64,000 nt of DNA, from NCBI GenBank assembly GCA_000998805.1, contig LCFC01000004.1, positions 2,446 through 66,445 of the forward strand, read 5' to 3'. This stretch comes from Parcubacteria group bacterium GW2011_GWA2_43_11. GTDB lineage: Bacteria > Patescibacteriota > Minisyncoccia > Phycocordibacterales > UBA12088. Below, one piece after another: positions 4,543 to 62,686 of the stretch. The position numbers and the translations under genes were made by a program. The notes beneath the pieces are model-generated. The model was not told the origin of the DNA. It worked only from the letters and a program-made list of their open reading frames with translations, and did not search any database. Numbering within the stretch: position 1 is the stretch's first letter; each line of letters starts with the position of its first letter.

Positions 4543-6327
4543 TTAGTCGCTGATAACGCGCAGTACTTCTTCTATAGTAGTGCCTCCTTGGACTGCTTTA
4601 AAGAATCCATCTTCAGCCATGGTGAGCATACCCTCAGAGCGTGCTTGTGCTTCTATTTTGTCGCTTGATGCCTGTTTGATGATGAGCTCGTTGATAGCAG
4701 ATGAAACCATCAGTACTTCGTTGATAACCATGCGACCTTTGTATCCATCAGGAGCTTCATCACTTGGAAGTGGTTTTGAAAATACCAAATCTTCAATTCC
4801 ATCCGTTTCTTTAATAACATGTTCATCACGAAGTGTTGTAAGTAATTTTTCAAAATCAATAACTTTTTTGAGCGAAACAATTTCTTCTTTTGAAAGTTTG
4901 TAAGATTCTTTTTGCCCATAAAGTCTTCGTACTAGTCGCTGTCCAATAATGACGCGGATAGTGCTTGAAAGTAAGAAAGGTTCAACCCCCATGTCCATAA
5001 GGCGAGGAATAGCTCCCGCGGCACTGTTGGTGTGTAACGTGGAAAGTACTAAGTGTCCCGTGAGAGATGCGTTCACTGCGAGAGATGCGGTCTCACTATC
5101 GCGAATTTCTCCTACCATGATAATGTCAGGGTCTTGGCGCACGAGAGCACGGAGACCCCGGGCAAAGGTAAAATCAATTTCCGGACGAACTTGTGTTTGG
5201 TTGATGCGTGCCATCTGGTACTCGATAGGATCTTCAATGGTAGAAATATTTACATCGGGAATATTTAAGAGATCGAGTATTGTATACAGTGTTGTAGTTT
5301 TTCCAGAACCTGTTGGCCCAGAGGTAAGAATCATACCGGTTGTTTGTTTCATGGCATGATGCAAACGTTCCAGTCCTTCACCATGGAAACCAAGTCCTTC
5401 TAAAGAATAGCCTCCGCCATTTTCTCGAAGGAGACGCATAACGGTTTTTTCTCCGTAGTACGTAGGAAGGAGTGAGACACGAAAGGATACTTTTTCGTTA
5501 TCGACTGCCATTTTGAAGCGACCGTCCTGTGGTAAGCGTTTTTCATCAAGTTTTAGGTTGGAAAGAACTTTGATTCTTGCAGTGATAGAAGCTGCGGTGT
5601 TTTTGGGCAAGGTCATAGCATCATGTAATAAGCCGTCTATCCTATACCGGACTAGAACTTCGTTTTCCATGGGCTCAATGTGGATATCTGATGCATTTTG
5701 AATGATGGCGTGTTTGAGAAGTGCGTTGACTACGCGAACAACAGGTACATCCTCTGCCAATTTCTTTAAGTCAGACTCAGAAACACCATCTTCTTCCTCA
5801 GAGAGTATGCTAATAGAGGCACTCTCGCGCTTGATAAGGTCACCAAATTCGTCTTTGAGTGTTTTTTGATATTGCAGTAGAGCATGTTTGATACTTTCTG
5901 CGTCGGTGAGACGAGGTAGGATTTTTAAGCCGACCTTCTTTTTAATAAATTCAATCGCTTGGAGGTCCTCAACATCAAGCATTGCCACCTCAAGCTCTCG
6001 GTCACTTTTCTTAAAGGCGATAATGTTGTGTGTACGTGCAATCGGTTCTGGAATCATGGAAAGCACTTCAAAGCCGATTTTTTCGTTGGCGAGATTAATG
6101 AACGGGACACCAAGGACGTATGCATGCATACGTCGTAAATCATCTTCGGATATATTGCCTTTTGAAACGAGAATTTCTTCGGGTGTGGTTTTTTTCTCCT
6201 CAGCTTCTTTTTCCGCATTGGTGTAGACAGCGCGTGACACGAGACCCGAGTCAAGAATGAAGTTCTTTAGTTGTGAACTTGATGTTTTCACAAAGTACCA
6301 GCGTTCAGGTAGCACACAGCTCCCCAA
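4543..6327 (-). CDS. pilB: Type IV pilus assembly ATPase PilB (GspE family)
   Basis: 594 aa with an N-terminal GSPII_E_N-like domain, Walker A TSGPTGSGKTTTLY, Asp/His boxes, and a tetracysteine-free C-terminus. The track start is TTG. Confidence 0.85.
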   Translation of the reverse strand: MGSCVLPERWYFVKTSSSQLKNFILDSGLVSRAVYTNAEKEAEEKKTTPEEILVSKGNISEDDLRRMHAYVLGVPFINLANEKIGFEVLSMIPEPIARTHNIIAFKKSDRELEVAMLDVEDLQAIEFIKKKVGLKILPRLTDAESIKHALLQYQKTLKDEFGDLIKRESASISILSEEEDGVSESDLKKLAEDVPVVRVVNALLKHAIIQNASDIHIEPMENEVLVRYRIDGLLHDAMTLPKNTAASITARIKVLSNLKLDEKRLPQDGRFKMAVDNEKVSFRVSLLPTYYGEKTVMRLLRENGGGYSLEGLGFHGEGLERLHHAMKQTTGMILTSGPTGSGKTTTLYTILDLLNIPDVNISTIEDPIEYQMARINQTQVRPEIDFTFARGLRALVRQDPDIIMVGEIRDSETASLAVNASLTGHLVLSTLHTNSAAGAIPRLMDMGVEPFLLSSTIRVIIGQRLVRRLYGQKESYKLSKEEIVSLKKVIDFEKLLTTLRDEHVIKETDGIEDLVFSKPLPSDEAPDGYKGRMVINEVLMVSSAINELIIKQASSDKIEAQARSEGMLTMAEDGFFKAVQGGTTIEEVLRVISD

Positions 6328-6783
6328 GTACTATGTATTGTATCAGGACTACGTGCATTAGGTGCATATGTTTTCAACAAGTGACGAGTAAAATAAGTTT
6401 CTAGTTCACAGTTCCTAGTTCTCCCCGCCACGGCGGGGTGAAGAAAGAAAGACGAAAAGAAACATGGATTGATTTCCTCCTTCGATTCCTACACCGGAGC
6501 TTCCTCCTTCGCTCCTTCCTAAGCTGAAGCTACGAAGGACAAGAAAGCTTCGGCGGGACGAGACGGCAGGGCGAGGCGCAATGATGCGTATTTTAAAGGT
6601 TTTTAAGAATATTGGTGGTCGTTTGTTCAGTACCAACTATGTCGGACCTAACGACTTCTGGCGCAGTCGCGGTGGTTTCGCGTTCGTCGTTCCGCAAGTT
6701 GGTCTTAAGATTTAAGACTCCTTGGCACGATTCGTTAAGGACTTCGGTTCTTTGCAAATTTCAGTCCTTTTTGACCATTGTGT

Positions 6784-7044: not shown

Positions 7045-7078
7045 AGTAGGACGTACACAAAAGGATGCAGTTCTAGAT
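7045..7078. repeat. Truncated MITE-family remnant (left end only) fused to the 5' end of nusA
   Basis: TAGGACgTACaCAAAaGGATGCAGTTCtAG matches the left end of the copies at 18362 and 21964 (…CAAACGGATGCAGTTC…). Confidence 0.5.
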
Positions 7079-7228: not shown

Positions 7229-8398
7229 ATGGCTACCGGAACAACTGAATTTTTTCAGGTGAAATTTGTCGTGGATGACACACGTGTGTGGTTTCCTACA
7301 GAAACAGAAGAAGGTAAGGAAGAGGGTGAAAATCACGAACGTGCAGTAGACCCGAACGCTCCGGTTTCTGAAGAAGATGAACGAGTGCGCTATGACTCTG
7401 AGAAGCACATGCTCCTCGAAGATGCTCGTCGTATCAAAAAAGACGTACAGGTTGATGATGAAATGATTTTCCCGCTCGAAACGCATGAAGATTTTGGACG
7501 TATCGCTGCGCAGACCGCGAAGCAGGTGATTATTCAAAAGATTCGAGAAGCGGAAAAGGTTTCTATTTTAGGTGAATTTGAAGGTCGTGAGGGTGAAATT
7601 GTTTCTGGTTCGGTCCAGCGAGTTGAACGAGGAAACATCTTCCTAGATTTAGGACGTACCCAAGCCATCATGCCTTATGACGAGCAAATCCCAGGTGAGC
7701 GGTTCCGACAGGGAGAGCGCGTACGTGCATACCTATATTCAGTAGAGGAGGGTCCTCGTGGTGTAATGATACGTGTTTCAAGGAGCCATCCTCGTTTCTT
7801 GATGAAACTTTTTGAAATTGAAGCACCTGAACTTGCAGGAGGATTGATTGAAATCAAAGCTATTGCTCGTGAACCAGGTAGTCGTTCGAAGATAGCAGTA
7901 CATGCTGTAGACGATCATGTGGATCCGGTAGGTGCACTCGTTGGTCAAAGAGGTGTGCGAGTATCGACCGTCATGAGTGAGCTTGGAGGTGAAAAGATAG
8001 ATATTATTGAATGGTCTGAAGAACAGGCACATTTTATAGAAGATGCGCTCTCACCTGCAAAAGTCCTTGATGTCGTAATAGATGAAGAAGAGCACCGCGC
8101 TACGGTGGAAGTGGTGGAAGATCAGCAGTCACTCGCTATAGGCAGGGGAGGTCAAAACGTCCGTCTTGCCGCGAAGCTTACTGGATGGAGGATTGATATT
8201 CACTCTATGCAAGGAGAGAGTACAGCTGAAGCAACTGATGATGAAAGTGATGCAGTATCCGAAATAGATGAAGAAGTAGGGCTTGTTGAAAACGATGTGG
8301 TAGATGATGCTGCACTATCTGCCGAAGAAGGTCTAAAGAATGATGCTGTAGAAGAGACCGAGGTTGACACTAAGGAAGGTGTTTCAGATAAGGAATAA
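7229..8398 (+). CDS. nusA: Transcription termination/antitermination factor NusA. The first ATG is at 7229, but the conserved N-terminal domain is encoded in-frame from 7043 with no canonical start codon.
   Basis: S1 and KH domains are present. The upstream in-frame translation LDLKVINSVLSELEEDRGIPRESVIEAIGTSLATAYKKEYG aligns to E. coli NusA residues 3–40. Confidence 0.85.
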   Translation: MATGTTEFFQVKFVVDDTRVWFPTETEEGKEEGENHERAVDPNAPVSEEDERVRYDSEKHMLLEDARRIKKDVQVDDEMIFPLETHEDFGRIAAQTAKQVIIQKIREAEKVSILGEFEGREGEIVSGSVQRVERGNIFLDLGRTQAIMPYDEQIPGERFRQGERVRAYLYSVEEGPRGVMIRVSRSHPRFLMKLFEIEAPELAGGLIEIKAIAREPGSRSKIAVHAVDDHVDPVGALVGQRGVRVSTVMSELGGEKIDIIEWSEEQAHFIEDALSPAKVLDVVIDEEEHRATVEVVEDQQSLAIGRGGQNVRLAAKLTGWRIDIHSMQGESTAEATDDESDAVSEIDEEVGLVENDVVDDAALSAEEGLKNDAVEETEVDTKEGVSDKE

Positions 8399-8434: not shown

Positions 8435-8971
8435 ATGAATATATGGCACGACGTACCACTAGGTAAAAATGCTCCGGAGAGCATCAATACTATTATCGAA
8501 ATACCCAAGGGGTCATTTAACAAGTACGAGATTGACAAAGAAACAGGGCTTATAGCACTTGACCGTGCAAACTATACAGCTGCTCCGTATCCATTTGATT
8601 ATGGATTTGCTCCACAGACGTACTGGGAAGACAATGACCCTCTTGATGTCATAGTCCTCACCTCATTTCCCTTGAGTCCGGGGATTTTGGTCCGGGTACG
8701 TCCTGTTGCTGTACTTGATATGATAGATGACGGTGATTCAGACATGAAGGTAATAGCTGTACCTGCAGATGACAAACGATGGGATGATGTGAACGATCTT
8801 CAAGATTTAAACAAGCATGCGCTCAAGGAGTACGAACATTTTTTCCAGACGTATAAAAGCCTCAAAGGTAAACCAGCTCCTGTGGAAACTCGTGGGTACA
8901 AGGGAAGAAAAGAAACACTTGAGATAATCAACAGAAGCGTTGAACTGTACAAAGAAAAATTTGGCAAATAG
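8435..8971 (+). CDS. ppa: Inorganic pyrophosphatase (family I)
   Basis: MNIWHDVPLGKNAPESINTIIEIPKGSFNKYEID...DPLDVIV carries family I PPase signature residues. Confidence 0.85.
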   Translation: MNIWHDVPLGKNAPESINTIIEIPKGSFNKYEIDKETGLIALDRANYTAAPYPFDYGFAPQTYWEDNDPLDVIVLTSFPLSPGILVRVRPVAVLDMIDDGDSDMKVIAVPADDKRWDDVNDLQDLNKHALKEYEHFFQTYKSLKGKPAPVETRGYKGRKETLEIINRSVELYKEKFGK

Positions 8972-12160: not shown

Positions 12161-12433
12161 ATGTTTAGAAAATTGTTCTGTTCACTCATTTTGGTCGTGG
12201 TGTTGCTGGGTGTATTTTCTCAGTCTGTATTTGCTGTATCTGCTGAAAGATACGAAATAATAACGTTCAGAAAGTGTGAGTTCCAAAGTCCTTTCAATAA
12301 CGAAGAAGAAGTGAAGACGGAAGCTAAACAGTGGCTGAATTCAGCTACTCACATCAGAAAAGTTATAAGCCACTCTCTTTCTTTTAGGGGTTCCTGTGCC
12401 ATAATTACAATCTTGGTGATTGAAAAAAAATGA
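12161..12433 (+). CDS. Small secreted protein, hypothetical
   Basis: AAGGAGG Shine-Dalgarno 7 nt upstream; signal peptide MFRKLFCSLILVVVLLGVFSQSVFA. Confidence 0.5.
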   Translation: MFRKLFCSLILVVVLLGVFSQSVFAVSAERYEIITFRKCEFQSPFNNEEEVKTEAKQWLNSATHIRKVISHSLSFRGSCAIITILVIEKK

Positions 12434-12470
12434 TGCCTCGGCATCCTGTACGCTCCTTTGTTCTCTAAAG

Positions 12471-12550
12471 CCCCGCATCGTTTCTTGATGCGGGACTTTT
12501 GTTATATATAAAAAGTCATTCATCATGAAGAAGGTTCAACCTTCTTCATG
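12471..12550 (+). terminator. Two consecutive hairpins (CCCCGCATC…GATGCGGG+TTTT and CATGAAGAAGG ttcaa CCTTCTTCATG)
   Basis: Perfect stems; the first is followed by a T-run. Confidence 0.5.
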
Positions 12551-33601: not shown

Positions 33602-35107
33602 ATGCACATGATAAACATAGAGCTGGAACACATCACTAAGATAGAAGGTGACGCGTCTATCAGTATCACTGTCGAAGATGGGAAGGCGACCAAGGTCCAC
33701 TTCATAACTGAAGAATACAAACGTTTCTTTACGGAAGCTCTGAAAGGTAAAAGTATTCTAGCGGTACCATCACACCTCTCACGCATCTGCGGTACGTGTT
33801 CAAACGCGCATGTGCTCGCTGCTATTGAAGCATGCGAGATGGCACTTGATATACAGCCTACCAAGCAAACAATGATGCTTCGCGCTCTTACCCTGCATGG
33901 ACTCACAATTCGCGACCATGCACTCCACCTCTACCTGTTCTGTATGCCGGACATCTATGGGAAGGATGCGTTTCTCGACTTTGATGAAAACGACCCCCAT
34001 GAGAACCAATTGCTACATGATGCGTTTGCGATAAAGAGCGCGGGGAACTTCCTCGCTACTATCATTGCAGGGAGGTCAATTCACGCGATGTTTCCGGCTA
34101 TTGGAGGCTTTATTAAGTATCCGGATGCCGAACAGGTCGCGCAAGCAATAGAAAAACTTGAAAGTGTACGCGAGGCTACGGTACGACTTGTCGCGGAGTT
34201 TGAGAAATGCACGTTTGCCTTTGACCGACATACCGACTACATGGCACTTTTGCCTGACGAAGGGTATGGATATATTAATGGCAGAATACGTACGAGTAAG
34301 GGTGAGGTGTATGACGAGAAGCTCTACCGTGAGCTTGTCGAGCACGTGGTATTGCCATACTCGCAAGCGAGCGCGTATCAGTACAAAGGAGACTCCTATA
34401 TGGTGGGTGCACTTGCTCGTATGAACATAGCTCGGGATAAGCTACATCCAAAGACGAAAGAATCGTGTCAATCCGCACTTGCACTGTTTCCCTCAACAAA
34501 CATTTTTCACAACAACTTGGCTCAGGCAATAGAAATTATGCATTCGGTTGATGAGAGTATCGACCTTCTTAAAAACAACCCTATAGTACAAGAAGATTTG
34601 GTTAAGATGCCATATCGAGAAGCCACAGGTATTGGGGTTATTGAGGCTCCTCGTGGAGCGCTCTACCATAAGATTCATGTAGGGGCGGACGGCAAGATAA
34701 TGGATGGAGAAGTCATCGTACCTACAGGGCAAAACCAGATAAATATTGAAGAGGACTGCGGACGACTCGTCGAAGATCTCGTGGCAAAAGGGGTGACTGA
34801 CGTGGAGGCGATAACTTTCGAGCTCGAAAAGCTCATCCGTGCCTATGACCCCTGTATGTCCTGCGCCGCAGCGCCAAATCGTGAAGAGCGAAACGAATTC
34901 TCAGAAGAACAACAAGAGATTATTGAAATGTATCAACAAGAGTTGCGAGACCTTGAAACGTGGAGAAATGAGCTTCTTCAGAAATGTGAAGCAAACGAGC
35001 GTGATGGAAAAGATTGTAATGCGCTACGGCAAGTAATAGAAGATGAGTATTTTGAAAAAGAATTGGAATTACGTCAAAGAGCCCACTATGCGGAGCACTC
35101 CGTATAG
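33602..35107 (+). CDS. [NiFe]-hydrogenase large-subunit-like protein with an unusual approximately 80-aa charged C-terminal extension
   Basis: N-terminal L1 motif RICGTCSNAH; C-terminal DPCMSCAAA (the L2 motif lacks the usual His/Arg), then APNREERNEF…HYAEHSV. Confidence 0.8.
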   Translation: MHMINIELEHITKIEGDASISITVEDGKATKVHFITEEYKRFFTEALKGKSILAVPSHLSRICGTCSNAHVLAAIEACEMALDIQPTKQTMMLRALTLHGLTIRDHALHLYLFCMPDIYGKDAFLDFDENDPHENQLLHDAFAIKSAGNFLATIIAGRSIHAMFPAIGGFIKYPDAEQVAQAIEKLESVREATVRLVAEFEKCTFAFDRHTDYMALLPDEGYGYINGRIRTSKGEVYDEKLYRELVEHVVLPYSQASAYQYKGDSYMVGALARMNIARDKLHPKTKESCQSALALFPSTNIFHNNLAQAIEIMHSVDESIDLLKNNPIVQEDLVKMPYREATGIGVIEAPRGALYHKIHVGADGKIMDGEVIVPTGQNQINIEEDCGRLVEDLVAKGVTDVEAITFELEKLIRAYDPCMSCAAAPNREERNEFSEEQQEIIEMYQQELRDLETWRNELLQKCEANERDGKDCNALRQVIEDEYFEKELELRQRAHYAEHSV

Positions 35108-46905: not shown

Positions 46906-47247
46906 CGGTGTGACTTGCGGTAGTATTCCTTTACCGCATCTGCGCGTATTTTTTTCTGTGATATGCGGAGGCTCTTTGTATGTCTCCAATGCCTGAGAAA
47001 GGTATACGTAATGAGGTTTTATTAAATGTTGTTAGAGCTGGCATAAATTCGTTTCTGGGTTTGTAAAAACGAAAATAAGAAAATTTGGAGCATACCGTAG
47101 TTTTGTTTTCAAAAATTTATTTTCCTCTTGCTTTCACAGTAACGTTCGTGTCTGACTTATAACAATTCAGAGCACCCTTTCGAAGTTGAGGCCAAGTTCT
47201 CGCGCCTTCACCTTCGCAAGGAAGCTCAACACTTAACATTAAGTATT

Positions 47248-48897: not shown

Positions 48898-49263
48898 TAG
48901 GTTTTGTTACATGCCGGGAGCAAGGCGGACGGCGCTTAGATAATGTTACTAAAATACCATCATGCTGATGGTATTTTAGTCTACTCTTTCTCGGATACCT
49001 TCGTGAAAGTTAGACCTTGCTCTGTAGTGATACATGTACTAAAAAAACCGCCCAACAGGGCTATTTTTTGTTTATGTAAGTATTACAACTAACGAACGTC
49101 AAAGGGAAAAGAGACTGTTGTTTAAAGAGACTATACAGCCAATTCAACACAATGTTGAATTTGGTGTTGCTCAGTCGTGGATTACCTGCCTGCGTAGACA
49201 GGAATTGCGTTCTTAATGACGCCGACTGAGTTAAAAGTTGTATAAAAATGGTACGGAGGTTTT

Positions 49264-49464
49264 ATGAAAAGAAAAGTGAAGCATATAATACCGTTCGATG
49301 ATGACCTGGTGGAGACAATTCCCGAAGGTCTGGAGTGGGAGATTGTCGGAAACGAGCTTGTAATCAAAGTGCCAAAATACCCTGCTGACGGTGCGTTCGT
49401 ATTCATTGAATGGTGCGCAGAGAAAGGGATTGAACATAAATGGCAAGATGGAAGAAATCTGTAA
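49264..49464 (+). CDS. Small protein, paralog family member A (66 aa); GGAGG Shine-Dalgarno
   Basis: MKRKVKHIIPFDDDLVETIPEGLEWEIVGNELVIKVPKYPADGAFVFIEWCAEKGIE…. Confidence 0.55.
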   Translation: MKRKVKHIIPFDDDLVETIPEGLEWEIVGNELVIKVPKYPADGAFVFIEWCAEKGIEHKWQDGRNL

Positions 49465-49474
49465 TCCCCAGTAG

Positions 49475-49707
49475 CGTAGTTGAGGTGGTGAAATACCAAG
49501 GGATGAATATGTCATTCGTACAAGGGGTGCAAGACGTTTAATAAAAACCCTCCCAAAGGGTTTAAATGGACGGGTTGAGAAAAGACAAATTCTGGAACAA
49601 TTTGTTTTACTTGTGCAAGTTCCAGCAAGTCCCCATGTTCTTTTTACAAAGTTCACAGAATGGTGCAGGAGAAATGATATAAATATGGAACAGTTGGTTG
49701 TTCAGTA
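49475..49707 (+). pseudogene. Degenerate paralog B of the same small-protein family with no canonical start codon
   Basis: In-frame translation …TLPKGLNGRVEKRQILEQFVLLVQVPASPHVLFTKFTEWCRRNDINMEQ aligns with A and C. Confidence 0.35.
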
Positions 49708-49755
49708 ACCTTGAGCCAATAATGTGGCACTAAACTCTTTCAAAGGAATAAAAAT

Positions 49756-49785
49756 AAGGCCAGAGACAAGCATTGTCCTGGCCTT
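49756..49785 (+). terminator. Conserved hairpin AAGGCCAGAGACAAGCATTGTCCTGGCCTT (family shared with 50268)
   Basis: Same stem sequence as the hairpin at 50268–50299. Confidence 0.5.
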
Positions 49786-49895
49786 CTGAGTAGTCCACCA
49801 ACGTGAACAGATTACCATTTGACTCTCTCTACATTCGGAGTACCATGAAAATTAGAGGAAATTAAGATGAAAATTCACCAAATAAGGAGAAAGTT

Positions 49896-50180
49896 ATGTG
49901 TGGAAAATGCGAAAATTGTGGCTATATTCCCTCAAAAAAAGAAGAATGGAATGAATTCAGAATCATAAGTGACGACCCTACCATTTTGGCAGGGACCCTC
50001 CCTCCGTATAATCCAGTAAGGTTGACTCTGAGAGGTGTTGTTAAGAACGGAGTGTTGGTGATTCGAGTCCCACCCAATGCTGAGCGGCCCGAGTATGATG
50101 CTTTCATGACTTGGTGTAAACAACAGAACATTGTCTTGTCAGGCTTTACTGGGGTAGTTCGCGAAACTCAAGCTGCGTAA
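49896..50180 (+). CDS. Small protein, paralog family member C (94 aa, Cys-rich N-terminus CGKCENCGY); AAGGAG Shine-Dalgarno
   Basis: …TLPPYNPVRLTLRGVVKNGVLVIRVPPNAERPEYDAFMTWCKQQNIV…. Confidence 0.55.
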   Translation: MCGKCENCGYIPSKKEEWNEFRIISDDPTILAGTLPPYNPVRLTLRGVVKNGVLVIRVPPNAERPEYDAFMTWCKQQNIVLSGFTGVVRETQAA

Positions 50181-50267
50181 TAGGCTGCGAATACGTATGA
50201 ACGACGAAAAGAAATAGGCCGGTAGATACAATCTATCGGCCTTGAAATGTGCTTGCGTAAAAAAGTG

Positions 50268-50299
50268 AAGGCCAGGGACAAAATAACGTCCCTGGCCTT
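50268..50299 (+). terminator. Conserved hairpin GAAGGCCAGGGACAAAATAACGTCCCTGGCCTT
   Basis: An 11-bp stem, paralogous to the hairpin at 49756. Confidence 0.5.
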
Positions 50300-50559
50300 T
50301 AACGAATTGCTGAAGTGAAGTGCGTCAGATTATCTTCTATCCACCTAACACAGTTTTTCCCTAAGGTGATAGGGTGGTCTGGCATACTCAGACGTTCAGT
50401 GTTTGATAAAAAATCGAGGCCAACAACCTTCGCTTTCGCTACTAGCAGCCTCCTTCTCTGATTCGCGGGCACCCACTTCAGCAATATGAAGTACATGTTT
50501 GTTACTAAACCTAGAGTATCAGAACATTTTTGTAAGTCAATTTATTGGTGTGTCATACC

Positions 50560-50628
50560 CAGTAGTGAAAATTGACGAAGCTCGACCTGTGGTCGAGCGC
50601 ACAAAGTGCATCGTCAATTTCTACTACG
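50560..50628. repeat. Third copy of the approximately 70-nt hairpin repeat (AGTAGTGAAAATTGACGA…TCGTCAATTTCTACTAC) with a different internal loop
   Basis: Arms identical to the units at 46747 and 46826; the loop has its own sub-hairpin CTCGACCTGTGGTCGAG. Confidence 0.7.
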
Positions 50629-50879
50629 GGGTTGCATTTTTTAACCCATTCCTGTATAGTACCGAGGCTAATAGAAGTATCGTAAGGTACTAGCCATGTT
50701 CCACCGACAGCAATGATAGGGAACCTCTGGACCGTAAGCCTCACTGGCTAGTGGTTCAGTGTAGGCCTTTTTTGTTAGCAAGGTCTTTAAAAACAGCGCA
50801 CTTCATCGTTGTGCTGCACAAAATACTTCTCATCGTATAATTTAATACGACTCGCAGTATTTTGTTTGCACGCCTCGAA

Positions 50880-50907
50880 TTGCATCTGTTTTTATACGCC
50901 CTACAGT
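50880..50907 (+). promoter_or_regulatory. Candidate sigma70-type promoter for rplC (TTGCAT-16-TACAGT)
   Basis: Hexamers visible directly. Confidence 0.35.
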
Positions 50908-50921
50908 TTTTGGTTTCAAAA

Positions 50922-53539: not shown

Positions 53540-53575
53540 GAGCGCACGCTCGCCCACGAGCATTTTTATTACAAT

Positions 53576-53811
53576 ATGACACGATCACTTAAAAAAGGAC
53601 CATACGTAGACCCTCGAGTCTTATGGCAAAAACCACATTGAAGTACTCTGTACAGAAGACATGGTTGGACACAAACTTGGGGAATTTTCACCATCTACCA
53701 AATTCATGCGACATGGAGGAAAAATCCAGAAGGAGCTTGAACAAGCTCGAAAGGATTCTGAAATTCAGGCAGCAAAGGCGGCAAAAGCAGCTGCATCATC
53801 AAAAAAATAAC
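53576..53811 (+). pseudogene. rpsS: rpsS (30S protein S19) disrupted. Codons 1–21 are in one frame ([16 protein letters not shown] then TGA at 53639). The C-terminal half (…[29 protein letters not shown]…) is in another frame. About 34 central codons are absent.
   Basis: Manual translation; alignment to B. subtilis and E. coli S19 residues 1–16 and 48–92. Confidence 0.6.
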
Positions 53812-53819
53812 ATACCATC

Positions 53820-54299
53820 ATGCAAGCTTTTCTTAAAAACAATCGTCAGGCTCCACGCAAAGTGCGCTTAATTGCACGTGCTGTTGTCGGGAAGACTGTA
53901 GCGGTTGCCCTTTCTGAGCTTACCTACATGCCCCACAAAGGAGCAAAAACACTCAGTAAGCTTATCGTAAATGCAGTTGCAAATGCGAAGCAAGCAGATA
54001 GTAGTCTCAACGAAAATACCCTTATGGTGAAGAATATAATGGTTGATAAGGGTGTAACACTTATGCGATTCATGCCTCGAGCTTTTGGACGAGCATCACC
54101 AATACACAAAGAGTCTTCGCATATTCGTATACTTCTAGCAGAGATACCTACCACCAAGAAAGTTGCAAAGACGTCGATGAAAGAAGATGTGAAGAAAGAA
54201 ACCAAAGAAGTAAAGCCTGAAAAAGCAGTTACTGTAGAAAAAACCCACACCTCCACTAAAGTTACGGCGGACAAGGAAGTAGAAATAGTTGCTAAATAA
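53820..54299 (+). CDS. rplV: 50S ribosomal protein L22 (C-terminal extension)
   Basis: Conserved L22 core. Confidence 0.9.
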   Translation: MQAFLKNNRQAPRKVRLIARAVVGKTVAVALSELTYMPHKGAKTLSKLIVNAVANAKQADSSLNENTLMVKNIMVDKGVTLMRFMPRAFGRASPIHKESSHIRILLAEIPTTKKVAKTSMKEDVKKETKEVKPEKAVTVEKTHTSTKVTADKEVEIVAK

Positions 54300-54333
54300 T
54301 CACGAAAACTAATTTTAATTACAAAAACTTATT

Positions 54334-54938
54334 ATGACGCACGTAGTACATCCATACGCACATCGACTGGGAATCATCCGAGACTGGAAGTCACGTTGGT
54401 TTGTCCGTGATCGTAAGCAATTGCAGGTACGCTTCGCATTATTGTGAAGACCGCCCGTCCTGGTATGCTTATCGGCCGAAGCGGTGAAGGTGTTCAAAAG
54501 CTTCATAAGGAGATTGCAAAACAAATGCGTGCTCTAAAACTGTCCGAAACACCTGAGGTAAAGCTTGATATTGAAGAGATACGAAATCCAGAAGCAAATG
54601 CGCAAATTGTTGCTGAAATGGTTGCAGAAAGTCTTGAGAAGCGTATGCCTTTCCGTCGTGTTTTGAAACAAACGATTGAGAAGGTGATAGCAAACAGAGA
54701 CGTAAAGGGTGTACGTATTGCACTCGCTGGACGTATTGGTGGAGCGGAGATGAGTCGAAATGAGCAGATAAAGCGAGGACGAGTTCCTCTTCAGACACTT
54801 CGAGCGGATATCGAATTTGCTCGAACGGAAGCTTACCTTGCGTACACCGGTCTTGTAGGTATCAAAGTTTGGATTTACAAAGGAGATATTTTTGATACTG
54901 ACGAGCAGAATCAGACACAAACTCAAAACGCAAGATAA
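54334..54938 (+). pseudogene. rpsC: rpsC (30S protein S3) disrupted. N-terminal 37 codons (MTHVVHPYAHRLGIIRDWKSRWFVRDRKQ… then TGA at 54445). The KH/C-terminal part is in a different frame from 54429 (LRIIVKTARPGMLIGRSGEG…). About 34 codons are missing.
   Basis: Alignment to T. thermophilus S3 residues 1–28 and 63–207. Confidence 0.6.
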
Positions 54939-57362: not shown

Positions 57363-58211
57363 TTACTTTTCACCGACGTGGCAGAGATAGTTATTTCGAC
57401 TGTGGGCATGACGATAATGCTCTTTAAGACCAAAACGTATATAGAACTCTATACGTTCTTCAAGTTCTGGAATGTACGTACAGAGTTTATCGAGTTCAAA
57501 CATGCGCTTTTCAATCTGTTTTTCCACCTCTGATTCTAAACAGTGTTCCCAGCGTTTTTTAAGTTCCGTAAAGTCAAAAATACCACTGAGTTGTTGAGTG
57601 TTCAGAACGTACATTTGGTCTTGGTAGAGTTTCAAGCGAGGTTCAGTAGCAGATACTGCGCGGAGATATTGAAACCTATCTATAAGCTCATTGTAGTTCG
57701 TAATCTGCGGGACTTCCTTGTCGTCGAGTTCCAGCAAGCGTTTTTTAAGATGTTCATGGATTCGTTCACATTCTTTCCCATAGCGCCGATAGAATTCTTC
57801 AATATTCCGCAGCTTCGGATAATAGTTACATGAGTCAATACATGACCCAATGTAGCGAAACAATTGCACTCTAAGTGCAGAGTTGCTTCTGCTGTGCTTA
57901 TATCGTTCTGCAAGTGCTAGGTGATCCAGGTGATTAGTCATGTTTGGTAGGTCAGTTTTGTTCACCTCAACCATAAGCTCTTCCATCCTGTACCAAAGGA
58001 GTGGCAACTCAGCCTGACGTGCTTTTTCCCAGATATACATGAGTTCAGGATAGTACGGCTGGTTTTCAGCAAGAGTGCACAGGTCCCTTGTGTGTCTCTC
58101 TACCATAATTCTGGTATACGATTTTTGTCTGAACCACTCGATAAGACTAAAGTAATGATCAATATCATTACGTTGTATGAGTCTGTCCTCTGAAATATTC
58201 GCACTTGTCAT
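57363..58211 (-). CDS. Hypothetical predicted alpha-helical protein (282 aa) on the opposite strand inside the spc operon; AGGAGG Shine-Dalgarno
   Basis: No recognised family. Confidence 0.55.
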   Translation of the reverse strand: MTSANISEDRLIQRNDIDHYFSLIEWFRQKSYTRIMVERHTRDLCTLAENQPYYPELMYIWEKARQAELPLLWYRMEELMVEVNKTDLPNMTNHLDHLALAERYKHSRSNSALRVQLFRYIGSCIDSCNYYPKLRNIEEFYRRYGKECERIHEHLKKRLLELDDKEVPQITNYNELIDRFQYLRAVSATEPRLKLYQDQMYVLNTQQLSGIFDFTELKKRWEHCLESEVEKQIEKRMFELDKLCTYIPELEERIEFYIRFGLKEHYRHAHSRNNYLCHVGEK

Positions 58212-58640
58212 TATAGGTACCTCCTGAAAGTTTGATATTCTGAAAAGTTCCTGCTATTTCCTACCAGCACCATATATCAAAGGTGTAAATAGTCAACGCC
58301 CAACAGTTTAGTCAAAGGTTGTTTGAGAGGAAAACATATAGAACGCTATCTGATAGCGTTCTTCTAGTACGGGGCGAAGGTGGGAGCCTTGGAGGGTGTC
58401 ATTGTGAACCCGCAGGCGCGACAATCCACGTTTTTCATCCCATTAAAGACAGGTCATCACAGAGTGACCGTAGTTTATATGATTAATTGCCAGTGGTTAT
58501 ATCACATCTCATATCTTTAACTATTTTTGGAAACATCACTGGTTTGGTCTCTAACGGGATTCATTTAAAATTGAATCATTTTGTCATTCAATAAAAATTA
58601 AAAATTACTCATCCTTTCAACTTTATAACTTTATGAACTT

Positions 58641-59690
58641 TTAACTTACTTGTTTCTTCGTAGGGGTCGTGCGCAAGTGCGTGATTGATACCACAGTACC
58701 ACGTGCTGTACTCACTCGGCTTATCTCCGCATGTAATTGTTGTGCAAGTGATTCAATGATATTTGTACCTAGACCTTCTTTATTTGATGCAGTCGCTTCA
58801 AGTCCAACACCATCATCCCCAATACTGAGCACCCATTTTTTTGCATTTGATGTAAAGGTAACAGTTACTTGACCCTCACCTTTAGGAAAGGCGTGTTTTA
58901 AGGAGTTGATTACTAGCTCAGTTGTGATGAGTCCTATGCCAATAGCCTCATCGGGCGTGACAGAGCCAGCCCCGCCCACAACTTTAAGGGTAATAGGTTT
59001 ACGTCCTCCTATCATCGATTTTGTGAGACTCTTGCAGAGTACACGTAAGTAGTTCAATACAGGCACCATAGAGCCCTCACTTACAGGGTCGAGGTTACGT
59101 TGGACAGTCGCAATAGAGATAATTCGATCATGTGCATCTTCGAGGTGTGCCTTACTCTCCTTTGAGGTCACGCTATCGGACTTGAGAAGGATGATACTTG
59201 CGATAAGTTGCAGACTGTTTGCAATGCGATGACGCATCTCTTTGAGAAGCGTATCCTTTTGCAACATCAAGTTTTCTTTATCTCGCTGTACCTTACGCTC
59301 TTCGGTTATGTCGGTTATGGAAATAAATATATCTTCGTGCTTGTCAGCACCTGTTTGTATTGTATGTGCGTCCATAAGCATCACCCGCAAGCCAAGATTT
59401 TCGAATGTATGTACGACTTCGTATCCCTCAACTTTTGTTTTGTCTGGGATGACTTGCTCAAGAAGTGATGTGAGGGCGGGGACATTCCATTCACCTGTGC
59501 CTAATGCATCAAATCTTTTTCCGTTAATTTTTTTTGAATCAACGTTAAACCTGTCATAAAAAGCATGATTAGCAGCTACAACTTGTAATTTACTATTGAG
59601 TACTACTATTGGTTCAGACAATGTCTCCACAATTGCATTAGACAATTCAAAGTTCAGGCCCTCTATAGGTTTTATAGGCTTTTTATTCAT
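58641..59690 (-). CDS. Cytoplasmic sensor histidine kinase (PAS domain + HisKA_2/HWE-type H-box + HATPase_c)
   Basis: H-box EMRHRIANSLQLIASIIL; ATP-binding G-boxes DDGVGL, GLGTNI; no TM segment. Confidence 0.7.
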   Translation of the reverse strand: MNKKPIKPIEGLNFELSNAIVETLSEPIVVLNSKLQVVAANHAFYDRFNVDSKKINGKRFDALGTGEWNVPALTSLLEQVIPDKTKVEGYEVVHTFENLGLRVMLMDAHTIQTGADKHEDIFISITDITEERKVQRDKENLMLQKDTLLKEMRHRIANSLQLIASIILLKSDSVTSKESKAHLEDAHDRIISIATVQRNLDPVSEGSMVPVLNYLRVLCKSLTKSMIGGRKPITLKVVGGAGSVTPDEAIGIGLITTELVINSLKHAFPKGEGQVTVTFTSNAKKWVLSIGDDGVGLEATASNKEGLGTNIIESLAQQLHAEISRVSTARGTVVSITHLRTTPTKKQVS

Positions 59691-61590: not shown

Positions 61591-62226
61591 ATGAACGAAC
61601 ACACAACAAAAAACACAGGTGAGAATAAAGGTACTGATACTCCAAATACTTCAGCGCCTCAAGGTGCAGGTGCACCACATACTCGTGGAAGCGGTGACCG
61701 ACGTGCACGACGTGTTCGCCGACCTCGAGTTCGAAGTGAGTTTGATAACAAGATTTTAGGCATACGTCGTGTGACGCGTGTTGTTGCCGGAGGACGTCGT
61801 TTCTCGTTTAGTGTAACGATGGTTATTGGAAACGGTGCTGGACAAGTAGGTGTTGGTATCGGCAAAGCGTCGGATACTGCACTAGCTATTGAAAAAGCTA
61901 CTCGTGATGCAAAGAAGCATTTGATTACTGTTCCTCTTACAGATGATCTTTCGATACCTCATGAGGTACGAGCGAAGTATGATGCGGCACAAGTACTTCT
62001 TATACCTACCCCTGGAAAAGGTTTTAAGGCAGGTAGTGCTGTACGTACCGTACTTGAGCTTGCCGGTGTAAAGCATGTGACTGCTAAGATACTTTCTCGA
62101 AGCAAGAATCACTTGAACAATGCCAGAGCTACTGTAGTTGCATTAAAGAAACTCAAGCCCGCTCTGAAGCGAACTACTGACGATAGTACTAAAAAGAAAC
62201 CTGGAACTAAGAATGTAAGCAAATAA
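61591..62226 (+). CDS. rpsE: 30S ribosomal protein S5 (N-terminal extension)
   Basis: …ILGIRRVTRVVAGGRRFSFSV…. Confidence 0.9.
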   Translation: MNEHTTKNTGENKGTDTPNTSAPQGAGAPHTRGSGDRRARRVRRPRVRSEFDNKILGIRRVTRVVAGGRRFSFSVTMVIGNGAGQVGVGIGKASDTALAIEKATRDAKKHLITVPLTDDLSIPHEVRAKYDAAQVLLIPTPGKGFKAGSAVRTVLELAGVKHVTAKILSRSKNHLNNARATVVALKKLKPALKRTTDDSTKKKPGTKNVSK

Positions 62227-62236
62227 TATTTCGACT

Positions 62237-62686
62237 ATGCAGCTCCACAATATCAAAAAAAGCTCAGGAATAACGACAGCGCGACGCATTGGTCGTGGTG
62301 GTAAACGTGGCAAGACGAGTGGTAAGGGACACAAAGGTCAGAAGTCACGAGCTGGGCACAAGATACGCCCTGCAGAACGAGACATGATCAAGCGACTCCC
62401 AAAGCTTCGCGGTCACGGTAAAAACCGCTCACGCACCGTAAATCCAGACAAGGTTGCTCCTTCAGTTGTGAATCTTTCCGTACTCGAAGTACATTTTGCA
62501 GATGGTGACCGAGTATCACCTAAAGCGCTTGTGGTTAAGAAGTTGGTCAACACGCTCTCAGGTCGTGTTCCAAAAATGAAGATACTAGGATTTGGTACAC
62601 TGACAAAGAAACTAACAATAGCAGAATGTGAGGTTTCTAAGAGTGCGAAGGAAGCAATAGAAAAAGTTGGAGGAAAGGTGTTGTAA
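62237..62686 (+). CDS. rplO: 50S ribosomal protein L15. There is no rpmD (L30) between rpsE and rplO.
   Basis: …RRIGRGGKRGKTSGKGHKGQ…. Confidence 0.9.
   Translation: MQLHNIKKSSGITTARRIGRGGKRGKTSGKGHKGQKSRAGHKIRPAERDMIKRLPKLRGHGKNRSRTVNPDKVAPSVVNLSVLEVHFADGDRVSPKALVVKKLVNTLSGRVPKMKILGFGTLTKKLTIAECEVSKSAKEAIEKVGGKVL

Follow-up and report, generated by a model that had tools for sequence, protein, structure and literature searches.

The break in the rpsC gene (ribosomal protein uS3) described here was almost certainly introduced by a local error in the assembly of a publicly deposited metagenome-assembled genome (MAG). The stretch of DNA that we analysed, referred to as the window, comprises 64,000 nt of the 72,805-nt contig UV60_C0004, which belongs to the GenBank MAG of Parcubacteria group bacterium GW2011_GWA2_43_11. 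The rpsC lesion and a companion lesion in rpsS (uS19) are not a real feature of the organism but an artefact of an already documented type, and, judging from contigs of the same strain in other assemblies, the organism is predicted to encode S3 (232 aa) and S19 (113 aa) in ordinary, unbroken genes.

As written in the window, the rpsC locus is split between two reading frames. Frame 1, opening with the ATG at 54334, encodes MTHVVHPYAHRLGIIRDWKSRWFVRDRKQLQVRFALL and ends at a stop codon (54445-54447), and frame 3 holds LRIIVKTARPGMLIGRSGEG and runs to the stop at 54936-54938. When matched against the NCBIfam profile TIGR01009 (rpsC_bact, 212 positions), the N-terminal piece covers positions 1-28 (21.5 bits) and the C-terminal piece positions 63-209 (167.5 bits); in the 3' part, Pfam KH_2 is matched over positions 26-77 of 78 only, together with Ribosomal_S3_C positions 1-83. 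An intact uS3 was defined as a single open reading frame (ORF) matching the profile from end to end above its curated cut-off of 114.5 bits. The window holds no such frame at this position: the locus is genuinely that of rpsC, but the gene in it is broken as the sequence stands. The locus consists of the following parts:

54334..54421, plus strand: rpsC (uS3) 5' part, 29 authentic codons and 1 nt, TIGR01009 positions 1-28
54421..54423, plus strand: deletion junction F, 94 nt of rpsC missing with a frameshift, 1-nt positional ambiguity (T)
54423..54938, plus strand: rpsC 3' part (second KH half and S3 C-terminal domain, to the stop)

For comparison we assembled a set of same-strain contigs, found via exact-product look-ups of the intact neighbours L2, L22 and L16, with further exact-product look-ups extending same-strain coverage over the entire 64-kb window. 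The set includes LCCJ01000017.1 (GW2011_GWC2_42_11) from NCBI, contigs of JGI 3300025308, ENA MEGAHIT k141 and k127 assemblies, and ANAN16 scaffolds; these contigs represent the same strain, and their sample of origin may differ from that of GWA2_43_11. Individual comparison loci are given L-numbers, L041 being LCCJ01000017.1 and L001 being contig 43 (LCCS01000043.1) of Parcubacteria group bacterium GW2011_GWD2_42_14, the closest relative of the window in a scan with one genome per species. Identity between the window and the same-strain contigs was 99.9-100% throughout.

At rpsC, the 5' part of the window is 100% identical to four same-strain loci (L042, L043, L044 and L053) as far as 54421/54422. 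All spanning same-strain loci (7/7, from 5 distinct contigs), as well as the 91% identical strain, carry an extra 94 nt at this point, which amount to 31 codons plus 1 nt and encode (F)KEYFKADTILREWLKKRLKGMYVADIEMERG. S3 in the same-strain contigs is 232 aa long; at positions 2245-2943 of L042, for example, a 232-aa S3 matches TIGR01009 positions 1-209 of 212 with 221.7 bits, thus providing a full-length uS3 at the same locus in the same strain. A 38-mer spanning the window's S3 junction was not found in JGI metagenome contigs, where the intact S3 junction was found in a roughly 91% identical strain with both S3 and S19 intact.

These comparisons refine the initial annotation of the locus. A broken rpsC whose remainder lies in another frame is indeed present there. 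The N-terminal ORF of 37 codons that it reported does end at 54445-54447, but codons 1-29 alone are authentic, and the tail LQVRFALL preceding the stop is the 3' part read out of frame. The absence of about 34 codons is corrected to the exact loss of 94 nt, and the KH-N sequence guessed for the gap is replaced by the segment given above. The GTG at 54444, taken as an ORF start, is an internal Val codon (within RIIVKTARPG), and the ATG at 54465 is likewise internal to the 3' part. Re-inserting the 94 nt yields a continuous 232-aa S3, full length by profile; the initial annotation had named such a corrected ORF, of about 220 aa, as the outcome that would speak against its reading. At the protein level, an intact gene would be marked by S3 peptides spanning FKEYFKADTILREWLKKRLKGMYVADIEMERG. 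We also considered, from the comparison with L001, whether GTAAGCAATTGCAG at the S3 junction was an inserted filler, a shared motif or a spliceosome-like signal, and rejected this: according to the same-strain contigs the ten bases GTAAGCAATT are native, and L001 itself has an 8-nt deletion there.

A similar lesion lies 800 nt upstream, in rpsS:

53577..53622, plus strand: rpsS (uS19) 5' part, 15 codons and 1 nt, TIGR01050 positions 1-16, 100% identical to same-strain contigs
53622..53623, plus strand: deletion junction E, 107 nt of rpsS missing
53623..53810, plus strand: rpsS 3' part, to the stop, TIGR01050 positions 54-88

The extra 107 nt are present in seven same-strain loci (5 distinct contigs), in which S19 is called at 111-113 aa; the restored S19 has 113 aa. 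The initial annotation was therefore right that two neighbouring genes carry losses of about 100 nt, but the lesions are six, not two. Comparison of the whole window with the same-strain contigs revealed six clean deletions private to the window, of 87, 122, 105, 112, 107 and 94 nt (sites A to F in order of position). The four located outside rpsS and rpsC are:

6377..6381, no strand: deletion junction A, 87 nt of intergenic DNA missing, 3-nt positional ambiguity
7072..7073, plus strand: deletion junction B, 122 nt missing, comprising the nusA 5' leader and ATG
34868..34869, plus strand: deletion junction C, 105 nt missing, comprising the 3' end and stop of the NiFe-hydrogenase large subunit gene, the spacer and the start of the next, 95-aa ORF
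49488..49489, no strand: deletion junction D, 112 nt missing, comprising half of a terminator hairpin and the ribosome-binding site (RBS) and GTG start of a small ORF, in the rpsJ-rplC insert

Every same-strain locus that spans any of the sites (2 to 8 loci per site, from 2 to 5 distinct contigs, with 7 each at S19 and S3) carries the extra bases, and the junctions occur in none of them. At site A the 87 nt are present in L060, L066, L068 and L069, and the surrounding block has a divergent haplotype in L061, L065 and L067. At site B, L060, L065, L066, L068 and L069 have the 122 nt, and L061 and L067 have 126 nt. The 105 nt of site C are present in L056 and L057, the sole two comparison contigs there, in which strain variation near the site is not visible, and the 112 nt of site D are carried by L041, L048, L049 and L050. 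Both flanks of all six sites are 100% identical to the same-strain contigs (BLAST against the window). Besides the six junctions and one locus-end artefact, exact 41-mer support in other assemblies is absent at only about 4 point positions in 64 kb. Six large deletions set against about 4 point differences do not constitute a natural mutation spectrum.

The deleted segments share little beyond their size (mean 104.5 nt, s.d. 12.5). Their targets are unrelated (intergenic DNA, the nusA start, a hydrogenase stop with the next start, a terminator with an RBS, S19 and S3), and the affected genes include three core components (S19, S3 and NusA). The nusA call in the window lacks 53 codons (7229-8398, 389 aa, TIGR01953 positions 67-338), compared with 442 aa and positions 4-338 elsewhere, and junction C creates an artificial in-frame fusion of 501 aa (33602-35107), which restoring the 105 nt resolves into a large subunit of 433 aa and the 95-aa ORF. 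With all six segments put back, S19 is 113 aa long, S3 232 aa and NusA 442 aa, and the 433-aa hydrogenase is again separate from its 95-aa neighbour; S3 and S19 are then full length by profile. No boundary motif common to the six junctions was found. Flanking repeats or microhomology, as would be left by replication slippage or by repeat collapse in a de Bruijn graph, were rejected as a cause: junction ambiguity is 3, 1, 1, 0, 0 and 1 nt at sites A to F, as expected at random (mean 0.69 nt for simulated random deletions). This absence of a common motif and the random level of microhomology, at targets that include intergenic DNA, a terminator, a start and a stop, lead us to reject the shared biological process that the initial annotation had offered as one option, and support its other option of a systematic artefact, given that six deletions of about k-mer size over unrelated features are private to one assembly.

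The lesions are also visible in the deposited proteins. KKS85982.1 (S3, 157 aa) corresponds to window positions 54465-54938; KKS85980.1 (49 aa, 'hypothetical protein') is the S19 C-terminal fragment at 53661-53810; KKS85932.1 is the NusA of 389 aa shortened by deletion B; and KKS85956.1 (501 aa, 'nickel-dependent hydrogenase') is the fusion across junction C. In an exact-sequence protein look-up, these four deletion-specific proteins were each on record from one contig only, with locus tags UV60_C0004G..., and the intact versions came from 3 to 12 contigs in NCBI, JGI, ENA and Logan. The 164-aa, 37-aa and 501-aa products of window ORFs had no exact match in the contig index. Since the deposited proteins are deletion products, the lesions were present in the public assembly and were not introduced later.

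Sites of local assembly error are expected to be private to one assembly and to lie at points of assembly uncertainty. All six junctions are private, with other assemblies agreeing against the window. As for location, sites A, B, E and F lie within, or at most 30 nt from, strain-variable blocks, indels or contig ends of other assemblies, which makes these four points of assembly uncertainty; the surroundings of site D are diverged in the 91% strain, and no evidence of this kind was seen at site C. The blocks that contain sites A and B exist as two co-occurring haplotypes, which differ strongly through many substitutions and indels, and several other assemblies have contig ends or starts within the 141 nt around junction E. 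Most of the sites were probably strain-variable branch points in the assembly, and reads would be expected to give no support to the six junctions.

We propose that co-occurring strains in the sample would have created branches in the de Bruijn graph, at which IDBA-UD (k_max 100), or an automated error-fixing or gap-closing step, may have joined neighbouring pieces. Each such join would have dropped about one k-mer length, wrongly removing roughly k-1 bases, and would have inserted no Ns. IDBA-UD with a maximum k of 100 and 150-bp reads has been reported for this dataset (PMC5220378), and the deletion size of about 100 nt fits a link to k_max, a connection drawn from the numerical coincidence and from reasoning. 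The evidence accordingly points to local mis-joins by the assembler or during curation at strain-variable branch points, rather than to the collapsed or trimmed reads suggested in the initial annotation.

Local assembly errors in MAGs were described by Chen, Anantharaman, Shaiber, Eren & Banfield (2020, Genome Res 30:315; PMC7111523), who describe them as especially common in IDBA-UD assemblies and as spreading wrong or incomplete proteins to public databases (PMC7111523); such errors are recognised when the consensus conflicts with reads or with other assemblies. The errors in the window resemble theirs in being short consensus stretches unlike the true genome, in disagreeing with other assemblies and in occurring where related strains coexist. 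Their density is much higher, however, with six in 64 kb compared to 13 local errors in a 1.13-Mb CPR genome (PMC7111523), and they are clean deletions of about k-mer size, whereas the described errors are scrambled sequence or N-filled gaps. Mis-closed scaffold gaps and false-overlap joins (PMC7111523) are close in kind, with an error where pieces meet, a k-mer or read-length size and perfect flanks. The documented case of Ns inserted despite an overlap (PMC7111523) duplicates sequence around an N gap, whereas the window loses sequence and has no N.

Of the alternatives to an assembly error, we consider it very unlikely that the deletions are real, reflecting a GWA2 sub-population with inactivated rpsS, rpsC and nusA, for instance a lineage in decay, relic DNA or an additional operon copy that does not function. 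Some process did produce the consensus that carries the lesions in the deposited assembly, and two divergent GWD2_42_14 contigs over S19-L22-S3 show that variants coexist; the latter are, however, accounted for by strains of 91% identity that were binned together. The ribosomes of CPR bacteria are reduced and unusual, and genuine peculiarities such as the absence of L30 occur in this same organism group, the window itself being without rpmD. Yet these peculiarities are whole-gene absences shared by lineages, whereas the S3 and S19 lesions are internal, frame-breaking and confined to one assembly. Against real deletions, the junctions occur in none of the 2-8 independent same-strain loci per site (2-5 distinct contigs), the S3 junction is not in JGI metagenome contigs, the deletion-specific proteins come from one contig only, and the flanks are 100% identical, with about 4 point differences in 64 kb. 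A natural pseudogene would show independent occurrence and ordinary divergence, and we found 0 independent occurrences. Moreover, the joint loss of S19, S3 and the nusA start is incompatible with viability, and a second copy is not in the window. Still less credible is the idea that DNA in the GWA2 sample physically lacked the six segments of about 100 nt, through a process removing nucleosome-free, read-length-scale stretches from a CPR genome, for example in a defective or degrading sub-population captured at high abundance.

It is extremely improbable that the lesions arose after deposition, through stripping of N-runs or editing, with the public record intact. The window is without any N, and the sizes are near 100, a common placeholder gap length; but the 501-aa fusion and the 157-aa S3 are deposited, and neither could have been annotated across N-runs or from intact sequence. 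Recoding, whereby a programmed frameshift, a translational bypass or a split gene would yield full S3 and S19, can be dismissed: two adjacent essential genes do share the same frame-change pattern, but the 31 and 36 absent codons cannot be supplied by frameshifting or bypassing, no part of the locus encodes the residues lost from the KH domain and the S19 core, which are contiguous in the genes of close relatives, and non-coding DNA is gapped likewise (sites A and D). In phage T4 gene 60 bypassing and in the prfB frameshift, which are examples of recoding, all codons are in the DNA. S3 resembles these cases in its stopped ORF and continuation in another frame, but 31 conserved S3 codons are absent, and the junction ambiguity is 0-1 nt.

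An assembly error in the S3 gene of GWA2_43_11 is accompanied by similar small lesions in sibling IDBA-UD genomes of the same study, which at sites E and F have private lesions of their own, different from those in the window. GWC2_42_11 has a private 45-nt loss that includes the rpsS start (L041, ~8461-8462), 28 nt upstream of site E, and is also without 26 nt in the rplV-rpsC spacer and 33 nt matching window positions 46906-46938. In GWD2_42_14, a private 8-nt deletion at position 946 of L001 frameshifts rpsC, the deposited S3 being only 182 aa (KKS35028.1), and another contig has a 21-nt indel at site F.

The lesions have no biological significance, in that S3 and S19 of the organism are normal, but the proteins KKS85982.1, KKS85980.1, KKS85932.1 and KKS85956.1 are GenBank/nr artefacts to be flagged. 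Six errors in 64 kb is a high density, suggesting that early, strain-rich IDBA-UD CPR genomes can hold systematic deletions of about k-mer size. Completeness scores based on marker genes, phylogenies built from ribosomal proteins and reports of gene loss are all distorted by deletions of this kind, which can be flagged without reads by means of same-strain contigs of other assemblies and exact k-mer support.

Several additional observations were made along the window. Two regions, 12412-12477 and 6313-6377, are genuine polymorphism hot spots among strains, at which contigs of the same population differ in haplotype or by indels and the window agrees with some of them only; differences near 12.4 kb amount to 64-90 nt, and 6313-6377 is a divergent block to the left of site A. 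Over its first ~1.1 kb, contig 43 of GWD2_42_14 matches the window (53575-54700) at 100% identity, before drifting to about 91%, a pattern suggesting that this contig may be chimeric or may record a recent recombination of co-occurring strains across S19-L22-S3. The same shift from 100% to 91% identity led us to consider the window as a two-strain chimera, which we rejected, L001 being itself a mosaic or a related strain.

The ribosomal operon in the window runs rpsJ, a 2-kb insert, and rplC-rplD-rplW-rplB-rpsS-rplV-rpsC-rplP-rpmC-rpsQ-rplN-rplX-rplE, followed by two opposite-strand genes and rpsN-rpsH-rplF-rplR-rpsE-rplO-secY. An Rfam scan of the 46-64 kb part of the window gave no match. Between rpsE and rplO, rpmD (L30) is absent, leaving a 10-nt spacer (62226-62237), consistent with the L30 absence known in CPR bacteria. 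The interval between rpsJ and rplC (48900-50920) consists of about 2 kb of non-ribosomal DNA with three small paralogous ORFs, which, together with the gene at which the operon resumes after rplE, are:

~49265-49465: small paralogous ORF 1 of the rpsJ-rplC insert, 66 aa
end near 49708: small paralogous ORF 2 of the rpsJ-rplC insert, ~75 aa, RBS and start within deleted segment D
49896-50180: small paralogous ORF 3 of the rpsJ-rplC insert, 94 aa
60002-60187: Zn-type rpsN, 61 aa, where the operon resumes

The three small ORFs have no match in Pfam and have in common a C-terminal motif, LVIxVP-x6-F-x2-(F/W)-x-WC. They are separated by hairpin or terminator-like structures, and the insert is found also in the 91% strain, in diverged form. 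The interruption between rplE and rpsN (57363-59690) comprises two minus-strand genes, one encoding a 282-aa protein with only a weak DUF5454 match (E = 0.0012) and the other a PAS/HisKA_2 histidine kinase.
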